This document shows positions 2 through 12,257 of a DNA stretch of 14,750 bases, one piece after another. The notes under the pieces are model-generated. The model did not search any database. It saw only the letters and a list, made by a program, of their open reading frames with translations, and was not told the DNA's origin. A program made the translations under genes and the position numbers. Location of the stretch: NCBI GenBank assembly GCA_964449215.1, contig CAYVAH010000010.1, positions 1 through 14,750 of the forward strand, written 5' to 3'. Within the stretch, counting starts at the first letter, position 1. Each line of letters opens with the position of its first letter. This DNA is from Candidatus Undinarchaeota archaeon (GTDB lineage Archaea; SpSt-1190).

Positions 2-1297
2 GGAGGCGGGGGTGGAGGCGGGGGGAACATACACTTGGTGGCCAGGAACATCAGCCTCTCAGGGACTCTTCAGGCAAAGGGTGGGAATGGGGGAGATGGT
101 GGCTTTGATGGATTCCTTTATAGAATCGGTGGTGATGGGGGTGGTGGAGGGTTCATACGGATTGCTGCCGATTACCTTGTTGAAAATTCAGCAACCTTTA
201 CGCTCGCGGGTGGTTCTAGTGGTACTGGAGGGTTTGGTGGTTATTCCGGAACTGCAGGATTTTACGACTGGCTGCTGGTCAGGCAAATAAGTCCGTCAAA
301 TGGCAGCCAAGTGCCCGCGGGTTACGTGACCTTCAGGTTCAACGCGAGTTCGAGACTGGAGTCCACAGTACCCTGCCAGATTACTCTAAACGGTTTAGTG
401 ATTTATTCTAATTCGAGTGTCTATTCGGATGTAATTACGGAACACACTGAAACCTTGTCTTCGGGTACCAAGTACTGGAACGTCACTTGCAACATGACCG
501 CGAACGGCACCGCCCTTCCGACCATATCAATGACCAAGGTCCTCTATGTCACAGGTGGTGACTCGGAACCGCCCACCTACTCCCAGAACTCCACCAACTC
601 CACCACTGCGGGCGAGTTTGTGGAGCACCGCCTCCACTGGGAAGATAGCGGAGGTCTCTCCGGATACGTGTTCAGCTTTGACAACTGCACGGGCAACTTG
701 GTGAATGATTCATGGACTCCATTTGGTGGTGAAAGCTGGTCGAATGTTACCAAGATGACAAATTACACTGTCGGCTGCACAATCCAGTGGTGTGTTTATG
801 CCAACGACACGAGCGGCAACTGGAACGGTTCCTCGTGTGTGAGTCCGTTCTCCTACCAGGCGACGTCTCCTGTGTATATAGCCATCTCTCTTTCTCCTAC
901 CTTGCAGTCCGGTGTGCTGTTTGGTTCCTTGGACCCGAATACTGCGAATGCATCCTCGACAAATTGTGTAAATCGCGAGTGCAACATAACAATCTCCTCC
1001 GACACGACGGTGAATGTCGATGTGGTTCTGCATGTTGGCAGCTATTTGACCAGATGGAGTGGGTCCGAAACTATCGAGGAACAGTGCTGGAACAGTTCCA
1101 TTGCAACCCAACCTGCTTCTCCGGCATACAAGGTCCAATTGACCTACGATTATACCAACAAGGTGGCTGCCAATGTGGCTGCCGGTACAAATATTACATT
1201 TAACTCCTGGCTCTCAATACCATCAGGTCAGCTGCCCGGCCTCTACAACAACACCATCTATTTCTGCGCCACAGAGACCGGAACGACCAACTGTTAA
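2..1297 (+). CDS. Large cell-surface/adhesin-like protein, 5'-truncated: Gly-rich repeats, two Ig-like beta domains, C-terminal pilin/WxL-like domain
   Basis: Frame +2 is open from the window edge (GGGGGGGGNIHLVARNISLSGTLQAKGGNGGDGG...GGDGGGGGFIRIAA), so the start lies upstream. It is S/T/N-rich with many N-x-S/T sequons and has Ig-like modules (ISPSNGS...YWNVTCN; DSEPPTY...WCVYANDTSGNWN). The last ~141 aa (872-1294) align with the next gene. Confidence 0.8.
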   Translation, partial: GGGGGGGGNIHLVARNISLSGTLQAKGGNGGDGGFDGFLYRIGGDGGGGGFIRIAADYLVENSATFTLAGGSSGTGGFGGYSGTAGFYDWLLVRQISPSNGSQVPAGYVTFRFNASSRLESTVPCQITLNGLVIYSNSSVYSDVITEHTETLSSGTKYWNVTCNMTANGTALPTISMTKVLYVTGGDSEPPTYSQNSTNSTTAGEFVEHRLHWEDSGGLSGYVFSFDNCTGNLVNDSWTPFGGESWSNVTKMTNYTVGCTIQWCVYANDTSGNWNGSSCVSPFSYQATSPVYIAISLSPTLQSGVLFGSLDPNTANASSTNCVNRECNITISSDTTVNVDVVLHVGSYLTRWSGSETIEEQCWNSSIATQPASPAYKVQLTYDYTNKVAANVAAGTNITFNSWLSIPSGQLPGLYNNTIYFCATETGTTNC

Positions 1298-1308
1298 ACC
1301 TTAAATAC
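1296..1308 (+). promoter_or_regulatory. Putative archaeal BRE/TATA promoter for the 191-aa gene
   Basis: AAACC-TTAAATA; the TATA-like box at 1301-1307 is 22-28 nt upstream of the ATG at 1329, typical spacing for a leaderless transcript. Confidence 0.55.
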
Positions 1309-1328
1309 TTCCCCTTCTTGGTTTAATA

Positions 1329-1904
1329 ATGAAATGGGTAGGCAGGGCTCTGCTTCTGGCCTCTTTCGGTCTTTTCGTCCTGCTGTTGTCCCAGTATTCA
1401 GTGAAGGCAGCTGCCAGCGATGAGAAGGTAACGACCTCCAACGTTACAGTGAATGTCTATGTTTCGATAAGCCTCACAACAGCCTTCGCCAATGGTGTTG
1501 AGTTCGGCAACCTTGACCCCGGAACCGATGACAATCCTTCCACTACATGTGCCGACCTGGGATGCAATATAAGCGTGAGCGGCGACACCAATGTGAATGT
1601 GGATATCTTGATGAAGGCGAACGCCAACCTGACCAGATTCCCCGGCACAGAAATGATAGGCTGGTGGAACTACACGTGGAACTCCACTGATGGCACCTAT
1701 CCATTTGTTCAGCCCGGGTGGGAGCTGAACATAACACAGTATGACAACAGGACTGCCCGCAAGGTTGGTGATAGCGTTGCCCCTGGAGGGGTCCGGAGCT
1801 GGCAGGCGTGGCTCGATATACCCCCTGCTCAGACTGCAGGATCCTACAACAACACGCTGTACTTCTGTGCTCACCAGGAAGACTCGACTGACTGCGGATT
1901 CTGA
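1329..1904 (+). CDS. Secreted beta-rich protein, candidate major filament/surface-complex subunit (WxL/Csu/TasA-like)
   Basis: Signal peptide (MKWVGRALLLASFGLFVLLLSQYSVKA) and no C-terminal anchor. Motifs VEFGNLDPG and WLDIPPAQTAGSYNNTLYF; four Cys shared with the upstream gene's C-terminal domain. The CDS is solid, the function is inferred. Confidence 0.75.
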   Translation: MKWVGRALLLASFGLFVLLLSQYSVKAAASDEKVTTSNVTVNVYVSISLTTAFANGVEFGNLDPGTDDNPSTTCADLGCNISVSGDTNVNVDILMKANANLTRFPGTEMIGWWNYTWNSTDGTYPFVQPGWELNITQYDNRTARKVGDSVAPGGVRSWQAWLDIPPAQTAGSYNNTLYFCAHQEDSTDCGF

Positions 1905-1921: not shown

Positions 1922-2632
1922 ATGAGGACAGTGACATCTGCGGTGGCTTTGGTTGCTCTTATTTTTATCTCTGGTGTTTTTGCCCAGGAAAAATTTGAGG
2001 TGGTTCCGGATACCGTGGGCATAGGTCTCCAGAAGAACTTTGATGTGGTGGACTTTTATTCAAGTGACGAGAAGCGCTGTGTCCGGTATGATCTCGGGAA
2101 TCCCTGGTCCACAAACGTGACGGGGTGGATAGAGGTCGGGGGCGACCTCGAAAGATATTTTGTTGGCAACGAGCCCGAGGAGGTTTTTGTTCCCTCCGGA
2201 ACCTTCCGGTATAACGCCTCCTGTTGCCTCCTCCCAATATATGCGTGCTTCAAATTCCCCTACGTTCTCAATGACACCTATTTCACTGGCAGGGTCTCCT
2301 CCGCTTTCAGGGTCGGTGAGAGCCGCCGGGTTGGAGGGACGGGGTCCGCCACGGGTTCCTCAGTGGCATACACGCTCACGGTCCATATAATGCCCCTCAC
2401 GGAGCTTGTTTTCAGGGCGGGGGAAACAAAATGTCTCGACATTTACGGGGTTGGCAAGAGGTGCTTTTCGGCACCCTGGGTGGTTCTGTCAGACACCACC
2501 GAGAAGGTCAATATTGAAGGTCACGAGGTGATGTTCATTTACAAGAACAACCTGGCGGTTATCCTCCTGGTAGTTGCCTTGGTTGCTGCATTCTATTTCT
2601 GGTTCAGGTCGAAGAGAAAAAAGGATTTATGA
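1922..2632 (+). CDS. Membrane-anchored extracellular beta-sandwich protein (possible DUF916/chaperone-like partner)
   Basis: GGAGG at 1910-1914 before the ATG; signal peptide (…LIFISGVFA-QE); beta-rich body ending GGTGSATGSSVAYTLTVHI; C-terminal TM helix (LAVILLVVALVAAFYFWF) plus basic tail RSKRKK. Confidence 0.7.
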   Translation: MRTVTSAVALVALIFISGVFAQEKFEVVPDTVGIGLQKNFDVVDFYSSDEKRCVRYDLGNPWSTNVTGWIEVGGDLERYFVGNEPEEVFVPSGTFRYNASCCLLPIYACFKFPYVLNDTYFTGRVSSAFRVGESRRVGGTGSATGSSVAYTLTVHIMPLTELVFRAGETKCLDIYGVGKRCFSAPWVVLSDTTEKVNIEGHEVMFIYKNNLAVILLVVALVAAFYFWFRSKRKKDL

Positions 2633-4518
2633 TGATTCACAGGCTCGCTCCCGCACTCCTGGTGGTTTTTTTGTTAGCGGTGGCTCTCCACGCGGCTCCC
2701 ACACAGACGCTTCCTTCCGACACGAACGCATCAATAAATGACGCCAACAACACGCTTGGGATTTCCCCTGACAATCTCACAGTTTATGCTCCACCAAACG
2801 GGCATACTGATGACAGCTTCGAGGTTCTGGCTCTCCTCCCCGGAAACTCCGGGCTGAATGTCACCGTTTCGAGGGAAGGGGACATAGCGGACTGGATTAC
2901 CTTTGATGGTGCTGGAACAGTCGATTTTTATGTTCAACCCGGGGAGGAGAGAGTTGTGAATTTTACCGTTACGGTCCCTCCTTCGACATCCGGCATGCTT
3001 TACCATGCAAATATTACCGTGAATTCCAGCTTTGGTGAGCTGAAAAAACTCAACCTCACGGTGAATGTCACTCAAGGAGTCGGTGCCATAAATGTCACTG
3101 TGAAGAGTTCCATCGGGGACCCGATAAGCGGTGCCAGTGTTTTTATCTGGACGCCTCTCAATGTGCTGAAGGATACGGGGACCACCGGAAGCAACGGCAC
3201 CTACCTCTCGAAGTGGCTTCTTCCCGGGAACTACACTGTTGAGGCGACGGCTGCCGGGTATAACACGAACACGGCAAATGCCACCGTTCACGGGAATCTC
3301 AATGTTACGGATGCTGTGGTTGTTTTGGAGCCCACCGGTGCTCCGGTGCTGGAGGTCTCGCCCAGCTCGATTTCGGAATCCGCTTACACGGGGGATCAGG
3401 TTACCAAAACACTCATAATAAGCAACACAGGGGACCTTTCGCTCGTCAATGTGTCGCTCAACACTTCTGTTTCCTGGATATCTTTCAGCAAGGGTAAAAT
3501 GAGCAGCATCCCTGCCTCCGGGAATGAATATGTGACCGTTTACATCGGGCCCCTTGGAGCTGTGGGGACCTACAGCGGTTCAATAACGGTTGCCAGTGAA
3601 AATGATGGAAATGAAACCATGCCTGTGAGTTTCGACGTCCGTTCGAGACCGTCAGGGGGTGAGGCTCCTTCCGGGGGCGCTGCCCCGCCTTCAGGGGGGA
3701 TTCCTCCACCTGTCAGGGAGATTGAGCTTACAGACTTCCCGGAAGGGGCGAACGCCAGTGTCGGGGAGACCAAGCTGATAGGGGTGGGTGTGAAGAACAA
3801 AGGTGACGCGACCATTTCGGGAGTTTCCGTCAGCGCTGCCGGTCCATTCGAGGTTAGAGTTTCCCCGGAAACCGCCGGGATACTCCCGGAGCTCACAAAG
3901 ACCTTCCTTCTGAGCATAGAGGTTCCTGCGGATGCCGAACCGGGGACCTACAGTTTTGTGGTGGTGGCGAGCGGTGGTGGAGTGTCGGACACGAAGACCC
4001 TGCACCTGGAGGTCATTCCCCTGAGGGATGAAGGGGTTGAAAAGGCGCTCAGCGGAACTATCCACGAGATGAGGCAGCTGGTGGACCAGCTCTGGGGGGA
4101 GGCCGTCCGTCTGGGATTTGAAGGATATGATGTTGAGGGGGTGTTTTCGGTTCTCCAGAATGCCACGAGGAAACTCAACAGTGCTGAAGGGAGTCTGGAG
4201 CTTGGCAACTATCCGGCTTCAAGGCTTGAAATTGAGCGTATGAAGGCGCTTGCCGAGGAAGCTGTTAAGGAGATGGCCATGTTGAAGGCTGTAACTGTGG
4301 TTGAGCAATCGCCTGTCGCGTACCTTCCGGCGGCCGTTGCCTGTGTGGCTCTTGTTGTGGTTCTCTCCCAGTTTTCGAGGCTCAAGAAGGAGCTGAAGAG
4401 ACGGGACAAAATTTACACGGCGCTCCTGACGACATTCAACCTGAAAAGACCGGAACCACAGAGGGAGAACCCGCCCGCAGGGCAGTTCGGGAGCCCCCCT
4501 GACAGTTATACCAGATAG
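2629..4518 (+). CDS. Multi-Ig-domain type I membrane surface protein (carboxypeptidase-regulatory-like and NEW3/CARDB-like domains, helical stalk, TM anchor)
   Basis: ATGA overlap with the upstream stop; signal peptide; GDPISGASV…TTGSNGTY…LPGNYTVEATAAGY (CarboxypepD_reg-like); TLIISNTGD; a Gly/Pro linker; VKNKGD…IEVPADAEPGTY; an amphipathic helical region; TM segment YLPAAVACVALVVVL then RLKK. Confidence 0.8.
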   Translation: MMIHRLAPALLVVFLLAVALHAAPTQTLPSDTNASINDANNTLGISPDNLTVYAPPNGHTDDSFEVLALLPGNSGLNVTVSREGDIADWITFDGAGTVDFYVQPGEERVVNFTVTVPPSTSGMLYHANITVNSSFGELKKLNLTVNVTQGVGAINVTVKSSIGDPISGASVFIWTPLNVLKDTGTTGSNGTYLSKWLLPGNYTVEATAAGYNTNTANATVHGNLNVTDAVVVLEPTGAPVLEVSPSSISESAYTGDQVTKTLIISNTGDLSLVNVSLNTSVSWISFSKGKMSSIPASGNEYVTVYIGPLGAVGTYSGSITVASENDGNETMPVSFDVRSRPSGGEAPSGGAAPPSGGIPPPVREIELTDFPEGANASVGETKLIGVGVKNKGDATISGVSVSAAGPFEVRVSPETAGILPELTKTFLLSIEVPADAEPGTYSFVVVASGGGVSDTKTLHLEVIPLRDEGVEKALSGTIHEMRQLVDQLWGEAVRLGFEGYDVEGVFSVLQNATRKLNSAEGSLELGNYPASRLEIERMKALAEEAVKEMAMLKAVTVVEQSPVAYLPAAVACVALVVVLSQFSRLKKELKRRDKIYTALLTTFNLKRPEPQRENPPAGQFGSPPDSYTR

Positions 4519-5892: not shown

Positions 5893-5936
5893 CAACCTTT
5901 TGTAGCAAGCCGAAGGCGCAGCGTAACAAAAGGTTG
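5893..5936. repeat. 11-bp perfect inverted repeat with internal GNA-loop hairpins, abutting the tRNA 3' end; probably also the tRNA terminator
   Basis: CAACCTTTTGT (5893-5903) / ACAAAAGGTTG (5926-5936); the interior holds GCC-GAA-GGC (5909-5917) and GC-GCA-GC (5916-5922); a TTTT tract follows the tRNA on the minus strand. Confidence 0.7.
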
Positions 5937-6008
5937 CAGCCGGCGGGATTTGAACCCGCGCTGTCAGCTTGGAAGGCTGATGTCCTGGCCAGACTAGACG
6001 ACGGCTGC
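5935..6008 (-). tRNA. tRNA-Gly (anticodon TCC), 74 nt, no intron, CCA not encoded
   Basis: The reverse complement GCAGCCG TC GTCT AGTCTGGCCA GGAC A TCAGC CTTCCAA GCTGA CAGC GCGGG TTCAAAT CCCGC CGGCTGC A folds into a full cloverleaf. Confidence 0.97.
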
Positions 6009-9085: not shown

Positions 9086-11287
9086 ATGAAACTCCAGGTC
9101 TTTCTGGCACTGTTTTTGTTGACGGTATCCGCGTTTGCTGATGAAGCCAACGTGGTGGGCCCCGGCGTCACCGGGGAAGCCAAGAGTGGGATGATTACTG
9201 TCACGTCCGGCATGGCGGGTGAAGTTGATGTGGTGGCTCCCGAGGAGGTTCCACCCGAAGAACTTATTGTTCAGGAACCTCCGCCTGAAGAGATTGCCCC
9301 TCCCGGGGGTGAAGTGGTCACCGCTGGTGAGAATCAATATGGCTCCTGCGAAATTGAAAAAGAAGTTGAGGGAGACTTGATTACTGTTACTGCTACTTGT
9401 GAGCTTTCCTTGCCAACCCCCTGCCACACCGTAAATTATGGCTGGGTTCCCGGGAAGGACGAAGGGGAGTTCGTGTTTTCGGTTCAGATAAAGGAGAGGC
9501 CCGGTGTGTGTGCAGAGGTGCTCCAAAGGACGACTGTTGAAAACAGCATGACTTTCAATTACAGGGAGGGAATGAAGTTTGACTACAAGATAAATTACAT
9601 TCCCGTTGCGAGGGTCTCTCCTGTTCCAGTGCCAGTCTCAACCGAAGTGGTTGGTGGGGTCGATGAGAGGTGTGAGAGAGCCAAAGCGGCACTTCTCAGT
9701 GCCATTGAAAGGCTGGAAGCCCAGATAGGGATGGCCGAGCAGCGGGGTGACTCCCTGGAGCTCGGCAAGTTGAAGCGGTTGCTCCTTGAGAAGAAGCATG
9801 AGCTTGAGAACCTTGAGTGCGCCCGGAATGTGGTGCAGAAAGAACTCCCGCCTGCGGCAATTTGTGTGAAGGAGCGCCTGGAGCTGGAGAGCGATTTGAG
9901 GCGTCTGTACCTCGCCTTGCATAAAGCCAAGGAAGAAGGGGATGAGGAGACTGCCGGAATTCTTGAGGATAAGATAAAGGCTATCAAGGAACAGCTGGAA
10001 GAGCTCCCCACGGTGGTCAGGTGTGCCCAGGCTACCGGTGAGCTCCGGGCTGAAACCACTGTTACCACGGCAAGGGAGGAGAAGCTCCAGGAATATGCCG
10101 CCCGCCTCAGGAAGTTTGACCTGGCGGTGAGGCTTTTCAATCCGTGCGACAAGGTTTCTCATATAGATGAGGAAATAAAGGAACTTGAGCAGGAGCTGGA
10201 GCTTTCTACGGGTGAGGAGGCGGAGGCCATAAAGGAAAAGATAGGTGCTCTGGTGGATGTCAAGGATGCAATGATGGAGGCCTGCACTGAGCTCAAGGAA
10301 AACAGCGTCTGCGGGGATGCTCTGCGGCTCAGGGCGATGCTTGAAAGGTTGAAGGACAGTGTTGAGTCCGGTGAGATCAGTGCGGTTCGGGCCAGGATGC
10401 AGGCCAAGGAACTGCTGGAAAAGTTTGATCACGTTGAAAAGCTCTGTCTGAACAATGTAAAGACCATGATGGACAGCCACCCGTGCATGGCCGCGCGCGC
10501 TCTGGAGGTCCAGCTTGACAGGCTCTCCGCTGCTGGAAAAGCCACCGATGTGCTGGGTGACCTCTACGAGAAGGTGGAGGAATACAGGGAAGCCTGCCTG
10601 GAGGGAGGGAACTTCACCAGGGTCAGGGAGAGGGTCAGGGAAGAGATGGGGGGACCCGGGCCTGTGAGTGAAAGGGCCAGCGATGTTGCCAAGCTTGTTG
10701 GCGAGCTGGAACTGAGGAAGCACCTGGTGCTGATGGATGAAAGCCTTTCCAGTGAAGAAAAGACCCAGAAGATCGGGGAGCTGGAGAGAGAGAAGCTTTC
10801 ACTGATAAAGGAGGCGGTGTCCAGGCTGAAGAGGGCGAAGATTTCAGGTGCTCTGAGGGTTCGCTTTGCCCCGAGGAAGATGGAAATTGAAGGCGAGGGG
10901 ATAGATACGGATGCAACCCTCGAACTTCCGACCACTGGTAATGACACCATAGAGGTCAGTGTTGGTGACCAGGAAGTGGAGCTGAAGGCAAAGAAGGCGA
11001 GGGTCAGGGCCAGGCTGCAGCTGGACTTCGAGAACGGGATGCTGAAGGTCCGTGGCAAGGCAATAAAGCTCCCGGACGAAGTGATGGAGCGGATAAGGGC
11101 AGAGATGGGCGATGTGGAGCTGAAGGAAGAGGAAGGGCGCCCTGTCTATGAGGGCAACGCCACGAAGGAGTTCAGGCTCTTTGCCATACTCCCGATAAAG
11201 GCCAAGGTGAGGTTCAGGGCGGATGCCGAAGCCGGACACCTTCTGGAAATGGAGAAGCCTTGGTGGACTGTCCTGGCCGTCGAGTGA
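9086..11287 (+). CDS. Secreted/surface hypothetical protein: acidic Pro-rich N-terminus, PTPC…CAEV beta domain, coiled-coil hairpins, C-terminal 'LFAILPI…EAG…KPWW' domain
   Basis: 733-aa ORF; signal peptide MKLQVFLALFLLTVSAFA-DE; E/K-rich heptads bracketed by Cys pairs; PepSY-like C-terminal motif ending KPWWTVLAVE. Confidence 0.8.
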   Translation: MKLQVFLALFLLTVSAFADEANVVGPGVTGEAKSGMITVTSGMAGEVDVVAPEEVPPEELIVQEPPPEEIAPPGGEVVTAGENQYGSCEIEKEVEGDLITVTATCELSLPTPCHTVNYGWVPGKDEGEFVFSVQIKERPGVCAEVLQRTTVENSMTFNYREGMKFDYKINYIPVARVSPVPVPVSTEVVGGVDERCERAKAALLSAIERLEAQIGMAEQRGDSLELGKLKRLLLEKKHELENLECARNVVQKELPPAAICVKERLELESDLRRLYLALHKAKEEGDEETAGILEDKIKAIKEQLEELPTVVRCAQATGELRAETTVTTAREEKLQEYAARLRKFDLAVRLFNPCDKVSHIDEEIKELEQELELSTGEEAEAIKEKIGALVDVKDAMMEACTELKENSVCGDALRLRAMLERLKDSVESGEISAVRARMQAKELLEKFDHVEKLCLNNVKTMMDSHPCMAARALEVQLDRLSAAGKATDVLGDLYEKVEEYREACLEGGNFTRVRERVREEMGGPGPVSERASDVAKLVGELELRKHLVLMDESLSSEEKTQKIGELEREKLSLIKEAVSRLKRAKISGALRVRFAPRKMEIEGEGIDTDATLELPTTGNDTIEVSVGDQEVELKAKKARVRARLQLDFENGMLKVRGKAIKLPDEVMERIRAEMGDVELKEEEGRPVYEGNATKEFRLFAILPIKAKVRFRADAEAGHLLEMEKPWWTVLAVE

Positions 11288-11327
11288 CGGTCGGGAATCT
11301 TTTTATTCCGTTTTCTTGATTCTGTTG

Positions 11328-12257
11328 GTGATTGAGGAGTTCGAGAAGAAGGGCTACAGGTTCCACGGGACTGGTGCTGTTGAGATATGCAGGTGGACCA
11401 AGAATGCCCTGCTTGGTCGGGGGGTTTGCTACAAGCAGAAATTCTACGGCGTGCCTGCGCACAGGTGTATGGAGTTCTCACCCTCGGCACTCTGGTGCAA
11501 CAACAACTGTGTGTATTGCTGGAGGCCCGAGGAGCTGATGGTCCCTGCCCGGGGTGTGAGATGGACGGATCCTGTGGAGATGGTCGAAGCTCTGGTGAGA
11601 AAGCGGCGCTCTCTTCTGACGGGTTTTAAGGGAAACCCCCGGGCTGACAAGCGGCTGCTGGAGGAAGCCATGGAGCCCTCACACTTCGCCATAAGCCTGA
11701 GTGGTGAACCTACCGCCTACCCCCATCTATCGGAACTCATAGCCTACCTGAAATCCCGTCCGGGGCATTTCTCCACCTTCCTGGTCACGAATGGACAGTA
11801 TCCCTTTACCCTGGAGTCCCTTAAGGTGCTCCCGACGCAGCTGTATCTGAGTCTCACCGCCCCGAATCCCGACCTTTATCGCCGTGTGTCGGTCCCCACG
11901 GAAAAGGACGCCTGGGAGCGCCTGCTCCACAGCTGCGACTTCCTCGCCCGCGCGGACACCAGAACGGTTGCCCGCATCACTCCGATAAAGGGATTGAACA
12001 TGACGGATGTGGAAGGCTGGCGTGCCCTTGTGGAGCGGTGCAATTCCCATTTTGTCGAGTTCAAAGGCTACTCCTGGATAGGTTTCAGCCAGCACAGGTT
12101 GAAGCTCGAGAATGTGCCTTCGCTGGAGGAGGTCAGGGAATTCGCCACCCGTGTCATGTCCGGGCTTCCCTTCAGCTATATGGACGAGGATAAGAAGAGC
12201 AGGGTTGTTGTGTTCAAGAATCAGAGGCGGGAGGCGGAAAGAGTTATAAAACAGTAA
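11328..12257 (+). CDS. taw1: 4-demethylwyosine synthase TYW1/Taw1 (radical SAM tRNA-modifying enzyme)
   Basis: Auxiliary-cluster cysteines and the Schiff-base Lys (ICRW…CYKQKFYG…HRC), CNNNCVYCWRP radical SAM motif, HFAISLSGEPT, TFLVTNG, PTQLYLSL, FVEFKGY. Start placed at GTG 11328 (TTG 11325 is an alternative), with a TTTTTAT box at 11300-11306. Confidence 0.95.
   Translation: MIEEFEKKGYRFHGTGAVEICRWTKNALLGRGVCYKQKFYGVPAHRCMEFSPSALWCNNNCVYCWRPEELMVPARGVRWTDPVEMVEALVRKRRSLLTGFKGNPRADKRLLEEAMEPSHFAISLSGEPTAYPHLSELIAYLKSRPGHFSTFLVTNGQYPFTLESLKVLPTQLYLSLTAPNPDLYRRVSVPTEKDAWERLLHSCDFLARADTRTVARITPIKGLNMTDVEGWRALVERCNSHFVEFKGYSWIGFSQHRLKLENVPSLEEVREFATRVMSGLPFSYMDEDKKSRVVVFKNQRREAERVIKQ

Follow-up and report, generated by a model that had tools for sequence, protein, structure and literature searches.

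A candidate donor-strand-exchange pilus locus in an Undinarchaeota genome, with a donor/acceptor asymmetry that recurs across its pilin-like family

Results and discussion

Organisation of the locus

The window, by which is meant the whole 14,750-nucleotide stretch of DNA analysed here, is the start of a contig (C10; CAYVAH010000010.1) in the 95%-complete genome of a Candidatus Undinarchaeota archaeon (788 kb in 49 contigs), and near-identical DNA is present in hydrothermal-vent metagenomes (runs X1-X4), one of which could be its origin. Four genes on the forward strand stand at the start of the window, with the following features.

2..1297, +: gene 1, open at its 5' end; 3' part of a large secreted protein with a Gly-rich repeat, Ig-like domains and a C-terminal pilin-like domain; putative tip adhesin
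557..871, +: Ig-like domain directly 5' of the shared domain, with last strand FSYQAT (848-865)
872..1294, +: proposed acceptor-only pilin-like domain, large protein residues 291-431, 42% identical to the small protein and without an upstream donor motif
1301..1307, +: TATA-like box TTAAATA, 22 nt 5' of the small gene, recognised by eye; possible promoter of its own
1329..1904, +: gene 2; small secreted pilin-like protein of 191 aa, putative shaft subunit (AF2 model, fold matches)
about 1329-1409 and 1455-1901, +: signal peptide and pilin body of the small protein, respectively; cleavage between VKA and AASD judged by eye from the alignment
1410..1454, +: putative N-terminal donor strand, mature residues 1-15, with the motif T8-x-S10-x-V12-x-V14 at 1431-1451 and the sequon N11-V-T
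1922..2632, +: gene 3; membrane-anchored PapD-like protein, putative assembly chaperone (model, fold matches)
about 2321-2392, +: candidate chaperone donor strand of gene 3, a conserved loop and strand (conservation, model)
within 1922..2632, +: C-terminal end of gene 3, a hydrophobic helix and basic tail
2629..4518, +: gene 4; 629-aa multi-Ig protein with a C-terminal membrane helix (Pfam CarboxypepD_reg, NPCBM_assoc), putative base anchor
2713-2739, +: donor-like N-terminal segment of gene 4, weak by donor PSSM

Elsewhere in the window lie a tRNA-Gly(TCC) (5935-6008, minus strand), a protein of 733 aa whose start resembles a signal peptide and which has long, charged stretches of helix but no Pfam family above cut-off (9086-11287, plus strand), and a radical SAM enzyme of wyosine formation (11223-12257, plus strand; matched by Pfam Radical_SAM and Wyosine_form). 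Contig C1 of the same genome carries an open frame that spans about 14,690 aa and whose start resembles a signal peptide (17164-61248, plus strand); the pilin profile has no match in it.

By eye, TATA-like boxes similar to that of the small gene precede the pilin gene at locus L018, in genome G010, and in one of the two pilins of G003 at locus L010. None precedes genes 3 and 4, and the background frequency is 79 of 513 long ORFs. Such a box before the small gene would permit the excess expression that a fibre shaft requires. In the spacer, seven substitutions common to three runs fall within 1310-1327, and none is listed in 1298-1309, where the box lies. Among the strain variants listed for the small ORF itself, 14 of 17 are synonymous, so that this ORF appears to be under purifying selection.

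A domain common to the large and small proteins

The first-pass annotation had judged the C-terminal domain of the large protein and the small protein to be paralogues of roughly 40% identity. Pairwise alignment by BLASTP agrees, giving 62 identities in 147 columns (42%, E 9e-33) between residues 291-431 of the ORF at 2-1297 and residues 43-189 of the ORF at 1329-1904 (nt 1455-1895), and the highest local alignment score among 1000 shuffles was 69, against 295 for the actual pair. Every conserved block that had been listed is found in this alignment, which begins, as described, abruptly at VY. The segment SDEKVTTSNVTVN lies upstream of that point in the small protein, at 1416-1454. When all six frames of the genome were searched with the family profile, these two copies were the only ones returned.

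Four cysteines are conserved between the two proteins (74, 79, 180 and 189 in the small; 322, 327, 422 and 431 in the large), as had been proposed, and the large protein has one further cysteine at 362. Pairing in the small protein is plausibly 74-79 and 180-189. Among 143 homologues the first two cysteines always co-occur (29 of 29), while the terminal cysteine, present in 131, is accompanied by mature C153 in 34 and by C67 in 97; C67 and C153 coincide only once, which looks like a switch of cysteine partner.

The view that the large protein continues upstream into its Ig domains stands for the adjacent domain (residues about 186-289), but beyond it the ORF is truncated by the contig start. 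What is missing at the 5' end probably corresponds to an ORF of 596 aa with which contig C23 begins (1788-1, minus strand), a join suggested by a 100-nt repeat, 94% identical, common to the end of C23 and the start of the window, and by the homology of the C23 ORF to the N-terminus of a complete 1408-aa counterpart in genome G010 (E 2e-57). Since the ORF is cut in this way and Pfam and NCBIfam name no domain in the large protein, the label 'adhesin' is an inference. The label 'major subunit' and the position of the large protein at the tip have the same standing. No ligand-binding domain was identified in it by Pfam and NCBIfam scans; laminin-G or beta-helix modules are carried by other C-terminally fused members of the family (three of the ten long proteins scanned).

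It had been pointed out that the donor/acceptor reading would fail if the N-terminal segment folded back into its own domain and the adhesin possessed a structurally equivalent strand, VSPFSYQATSP, so that no groove stayed open. VSPFSYQATSP was rejected as a self-complementing strand of the C-terminal domain, because it equals the last strand of the preceding Ig domain. Four copies of the Ig domain that lead into no pilin domain (two in P0050, one in the ORF on contig C18 and the N-terminal copy in G010) are likewise followed by an equivalent strand, of the form (F/Y/H/S)-S/T-Y-x-x, and FSYQAT is therefore taken to close the upstream Ig domain. The phmmer alignment of the large protein to the C18 ORF extends to residue 288. 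That ORF (C18:8923-6185, minus strand) is a 913-aa secreted-protein frame without a pilin domain, and its Ig domain is 56% identical to that at window 557-871.

The putative donor strand across the family

A profile search returned 1084 clusters (50% identity) at E<=1e-3, of which the best 150 were retrieved, and 143 stand-alone members were used for motif counts. In these, N-terminal conservation alternates along the strand: T8 in 66%, S10 in 87%, V or A at position 12 in 97% (V 70%, A 27%) and V or I at position 14 in 98% (V 55%, I 43%). The sequon at N11 is kept in 89 of the 143. The motif [STAV]-x-[SGAT]-x-[VAIL]-x-[VIL] is found in 130 of the 143 stand-alone members, against none of the 16 in which the domain is fused C-terminally. 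The asymmetry that the first-pass annotation had noticed between two neighbouring genes is thus family-wide, and the fold matches given below are to donor-strand pilins. A donor/acceptor interpretation is supported by this family and fold evidence; insertion of the strand into a groove of the large protein is proposed from sequence and model.

The fused members come from a set of 34 proteins of at least 225 aa, the 16 including those of the window and of G010. The remainder are two N-terminal fusions, 12 proteins of 270-300 aa, three ordinary stand-alone proteins with the motif, and one repeat false positive (P0161), which was excluded from the counts; for P0057 the upstream window was extrapolated. 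Both N-terminal fusions, P0101 (698 aa) and P0148 (1201 aa), have the pilin domain and donor motif at their N-terminus, and by analogy with an exception in E. faecium described in the Elr preprint they could be built into the shaft. The 270-300-aa subclass (P0087, P0089, P0090, P0096, P0116, P0123, P0138, P0151, P0158, P0162, P0175 and P0178) has about 100 charged, coiled-coil-like residues, then a hydrophobic segment, a donor-like strand and the pilin body; the donor motif is present in 7 of the 12, and the six scanned gave no Pfam match. These are possibly membrane-retained or regulated pilins.

In a tree of a subset of 64 domains (14 fused, 50 stand-alone), the label 'fused' needs four changes, and no bootstrap tree has a single change. 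The C-terminal domain of the window protein groups with ten other fused domains and one stand-alone protein, with support of 96/97. This unrooted tree suggests an old duplication in the lineage of the window and repeated fusion elsewhere. The stand-alone protein in that group, P0027 (181 aa), has a donor strand and a body that groups with the fused tip domains, and it is possible that it represents an adaptor subunit or a gene conversion.

Atlas clusters of homologues are 90-95% Archaea, with Altiarchaeota and Aenigmarchaeota among the named sources. Taken with the size of the genome, these labels suggest that the organism is of DPANN type. The pilin was found in 5 of 17 genomes of the phylum, which counts against the explanation preferred below. 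Pfam and NCBIfam hold no family for genes 1-3, matches to DUF4402 being weak (in 8 of 38 and in 5 of 143 members, with a best E of 0.003). By sequence, nothing meaningful was matched in the PDB, and plasmids gave no match.

Predicted structure of the small protein

The AF2 model of the mature small protein, which carries eight N-glycosylation sequons, has a pLDDT of 95.5. Residues 1-19 have no pairing partner in the monomer and yet are modelled at pLDDT 85-97, in line with the earlier proposal of a free N-terminal segment that does not fold back on its own domain.

The first ten rows of the Foldseek search are all donor-strand pilins, among them Csu (E 5.8e-4), TLP-1a/b, CfaB, FimA and AbpA, with one row at E<=0.001. 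With the strand included, VIA-align superposed the model on TLP-1b at Z 8.1 (147 aligned, rmsd 4.2) and on the TasA fibre at Z 6.1 (138 aligned, rmsd 3.7); Saci_0406, CsuE and AbpA gave Z of 7.5, 7.3 and 5.8, respectively. For the body, the alignment with Csu A/B (17-156 on 15-155, Z 7.2) reaches that protein's C-terminal end, and in Csu A/B, FimA, FimG and PapA alike the C-terminal strand is covered (Z 6.2-7.2). The best VIA-align match is a non-pilin ASH domain, with Z of about 8.5 against 5.8-8.1 for the pilins, and non-pilin ASH and GH123 N-terminal Ig domains together span 7.5-8.7, as high as the pilins. Given these middling pilin scores and equal non-pilin scores, the models support a fold class and not a specific family. 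WxL, TafE and Pam pilins are not among the fold matches listed, an absence that excludes nothing.

Genes 3 and 4 and related neighbourhoods

The first-pass annotation had not remarked on these two genes. The gene 3 protein carries a signal peptide as well as a C-terminal membrane helix, and a further 31 homologues of it were found. Its model (pLDDT 84.3) contains a nearly invariant loop, 113-125, which falls below 50 and is followed by the last strand of domain 1; S121, G124, S126 and V127 in this region are invariant in 31 gene 3 sequences. A loop of this kind would suit a chaperone donor strand, as in F1-G1 loops. When VIA-align was run against 48,161 chains, E. faecium WxLIP came first (9i1y; Z 10.5, rmsd 3.2, 110 aligned), followed by YadV (10.1), VAP-A MSP (9.8), SafB (9.6), Vpr (9.6) and FimC (9.5), so that the WxLIP score is tied with those of the non-chaperone folds VAP-A and Vpr. 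Ciliary ASH proteins lead the Foldseek list, in which FaeE, FimC and Caf1M are also matched. It is rather likely that the gene 3 protein serves as a chaperone. Among the 17 genomes of the phylum a homologue occurs in three, one of them weak.

Just after the signal peptide of the gene 4 protein is a segment with a donor PSSM score of 3.1, third among the genome's 66 signal-peptide-like ORFs; the pilin median is 16.5, a figure inflated by the training of the PSSM on stand-alone members. The segment scores no better than chance segments of the same proteins, and by eye it is similar in most of the 14 closest homologues. The role of base anchor can be assigned to gene 4 only tentatively, at somewhat less than an even chance.

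The order pilin, gene 3, gene 4 is kept at L018. In G010 the large-small pair and gene 3 occupy separate contig ends. In G003 and G004 pilin-like genes adjoin short membrane-anchored beta proteins. By eye, 12 of 37 pilin homologues come from sources whose longest contig has the same length as that of a gene 3 homologue. A metagenome-assembled genome of Chloroflexota (L015:6501-11219) has, in order, a fused domain, a 188-aa gene, a pilin (hhalign probability 98%) and a membrane-anchored beta protein, which suggests that the system also occurs in bacteria; this locus adjoins ECF-type transporter genes. The two post-pilin membrane proteins tested, of G003 and L015, show no profile similarity to gene 3 (hhalign probability 0.2-0.3). 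A further locus, L019, was rejected as a relative, the match being due to chance.

A proposed mechanism and its alternatives

From sequence and predicted models, the four genes probably specify a Sec-secreted pilus built by donor-strand exchange. The small protein would be an incomplete Ig fold ending in the last strand of its body, and each copy would insert the strand at its N-terminus into the previous copy's groove to form a linear fibre, with T8, S10, V12 and V14 facing inward and glycosylated N11 outward. Since the large protein has the same domain without a donor strand, it would only accept, and would sit once at the distal tip with its N-terminal modules displayed. The gene 3 protein would lend its own strand, prime the subunits at the membrane and pass them on without an usher, and the gene 4 protein may donate a strand, end assembly and hold the fibre in the membrane. 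The order from tip to base would then be the large protein, the small protein repeated, and the gene 4 protein, with gene 3 priming. Polymerisation of the small protein together with a tip role for the large one is the most secure part of this scheme and very probable; adhesion to a host or a surface is moderately likely.

The same subunits might form a fibre through strand donation with no chaperone, in the manner of archaeal threads, AbpA, Tafi or TasA, gene 3 then being either an accessory Ig protein or a passive anchor in the membrane. The literature presents archaeal donor-strand fibres as chaperone-free, Saci_0406, TasA and AbpA match the small protein as well as the chaperone-usher pilins do (Z 7.5, 6.1 and 5.8), and the Z of gene 3 to WxLIP is within 1 of those to VAP-A and Vpr. 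We nevertheless consider this unlikely: the invariant G/S-rich loop of gene 3 lacks order in the free model, a behaviour that one would expect a chaperone donor strand to show; four of its top six VIA-align matches (WxLIP, YadV, SafB and FimC) are pilus chaperones; and there is no signal-peptidase gene in the locus (cut at its 5' side), the only TIGR02228 match of the genome lying on contig C22.

Less likely again is an arrangement with no long fibre, in which one or a few copies of the small protein would act as an adaptor joining the large protein to the membrane anchor by strand complementation. The polymer is itself a proposal, and the domain of the large protein is 42% identical to its neighbour as against 57-65% to the closest fused domains, a divergence by which the grooves could be partner-specific. 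The small protein, however, combines a donor strand with a body of that same fold, which permits it to polymerise with itself; the small gene has its own TATA-like box in several loci; and the Elr and Pam systems, of the same layout, form fibres. Least probable of all, and to our minds hardly credible, is that the pair represents an ordinary duplicated Ig-like domain of S-layer-type surface glycoproteins, the N-terminal segment being a self-complementing strand or a linker. The richness of the proteins in N-glycosylation sequons would suit such a role, and PapD/ASH-like and GH123 N-terminal Ig domains do score as high as pilins, but the strand is modelled unpaired at high confidence and is conserved in strict alternation, and all 16 C-terminally fused copies, lacking it, would then miss a strand that they need.

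Comparison with known systems

On the best reading, which is one by analogy, the donor-strand pilus proposed here would work like the WxL/Elr and Pam pili, although the locus gives negative results in the family tests for WxL and chaperone-usher systems. Membership of the WxL, chaperone-usher and Tafi families was rejected on such tests. At E<=0.01 Pfam WxL (PF13731) is not matched anywhere in the genome, and the L. lactis control was positive; the Atlas lists a WxL cluster at 0.83, which serves as a lead only. WxLIP (PF06030) likewise has no match in the genome, and WxLIP_PGBD and WxLIP_HBD are absent among the matches shown for gene 3 or its alignment. The control matches of Pfam WxLIP_PGBD were in Thermotoga maritima, Methanosarcina acetivorans and L. 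lactis, and two of these passed the cut-off.

The WxL donor consensus given in the available part of the Elr preprint is [S/T]8-x-[G/A]10-x-[V/I]12-x-F14 (bioRxiv 10.64898/2026.10.17.759780). Register and alternation are alike in the two systems, with S at position 10 and V/I at position 14 here in place of G/A and F. They resemble each other in having a tip-type protein with a C-terminal pilin domain and no donor strand (the motif being absent from all 16 fused members). They differ in that the second chaperone domain is small here, and in that the present proteins have disulfides, N-glycan sequons and an archaeal host. In place of the LPxTG base of WxL/Elr, the putative anchor ends in a membrane helix; inspection by eye of the C-terminal parts of the gene 3 and gene 4 proteins showed no LPxTG, and a Gram_pos_anchor match on the gene 3 membrane helix is sub-threshold (E 0.48). 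The same preprint, as far as available, surveyed 4,698 genera and placed the Elr system in Bacillota only, by Pfam thresholds (bioRxiv 10.64898/2026.10.17.759780) below which the present locus falls. A paper of 2022 called WxL exclusively bacterial.

The Pam pilus of CPR bacteria is described, in the accessible portion of its report, as usher-less, Sec-secreted, assembled by donor-strand exchange and exclusive to CPR (PMC13278184). By that account its chaperones PamC/D have a C-terminal membrane helix, as gene 3 does, its anchor PamR has an N-terminal strand, beta domains and a membrane helix, as gene 4 does, and the context is again one of symbiont and host. Compared by description, Pam pilins are two-domain proteins of 39-55 kDa with a single-domain pilin as the tip (PMC13278184), whereas the pilin here has a single domain.

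With chaperone-usher pili (Csu, CupE, CFA/I, type 1/P) the locus has in common an incomplete Ig pilin with an N-terminal extension, here in a predicted model for which Csu is the top Foldseek match, a two-part adhesin with a C-terminal pilin domain, and a PapD-like chaperone fold. Sequence identity to them is 8-16%, and their cysteine positions differ from those here. No usher (PF00577) was matched in the 95%-complete genome, the E. coli control being positive. PapD chaperones are soluble and periplasmic, unlike gene 3, whose membrane helix is kept in its full-length homologues.

Archaeal threads (Saci_0406), AbpA, cannulae and Tafi are likewise built from glycosylated beta-sandwich subunits joined by an N-terminal strand, but their descriptions, in the parts available, report no chaperone. 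The Tafi accounts, also available in part, describe Tat signals and a peptidase at the locus, and the model for H. hispanica has TafC as a donating tip and TafF as an accepting membrane anchor (PMC12337348, PMC11821415), a polarity opposite to that proposed here. No twin-arginine motif was seen by eye in the signal of the small protein. The highest-scoring filament proteins in VIA-align, the TLP-1a/b fibrils, are 14% identical to the small protein; TLP-1 is of unknown origin, has 237 residues, assembles by n+4 donation and, in the available text, is assigned by its authors to bacteria (PMC11494351).

Significance

Donor/acceptor asymmetry is textbook knowledge in bacteria, which limits the surprise of finding it here. 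The open literature, to which our search extended, holds no description of this family or of a chaperone-assisted system in archaea. On balance we incline slightly towards the view that DPANN archaea and some Chloroflexota have a widespread, undescribed pilus that is assembled by donor-strand exchange under the guidance of a chaperone and without an usher, is anchored in the membrane, and carries a tip adhesin that can be exchanged. If so, it would be an archaeal counterpart of the WxL, Pam and chaperone-usher pili, and would extend chaperone-assisted pilus assembly to archaea, where strand-donation fibres have been described as chaperone-free; a large unannotated family would also gain a name.

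Published candidates for the means by which DPANN archaea find their hosts and attach to them include, in the part of the source available, archaellum-like filaments and lectin-like proteins (10.1101/2023.10.27.564410). The locus offers a further candidate, of four genes, expressible and clear in what it predicts, and if the proposal is true the pilus would be a candidate organelle of host recognition whose specificity is set by the swapped payload at its tip.
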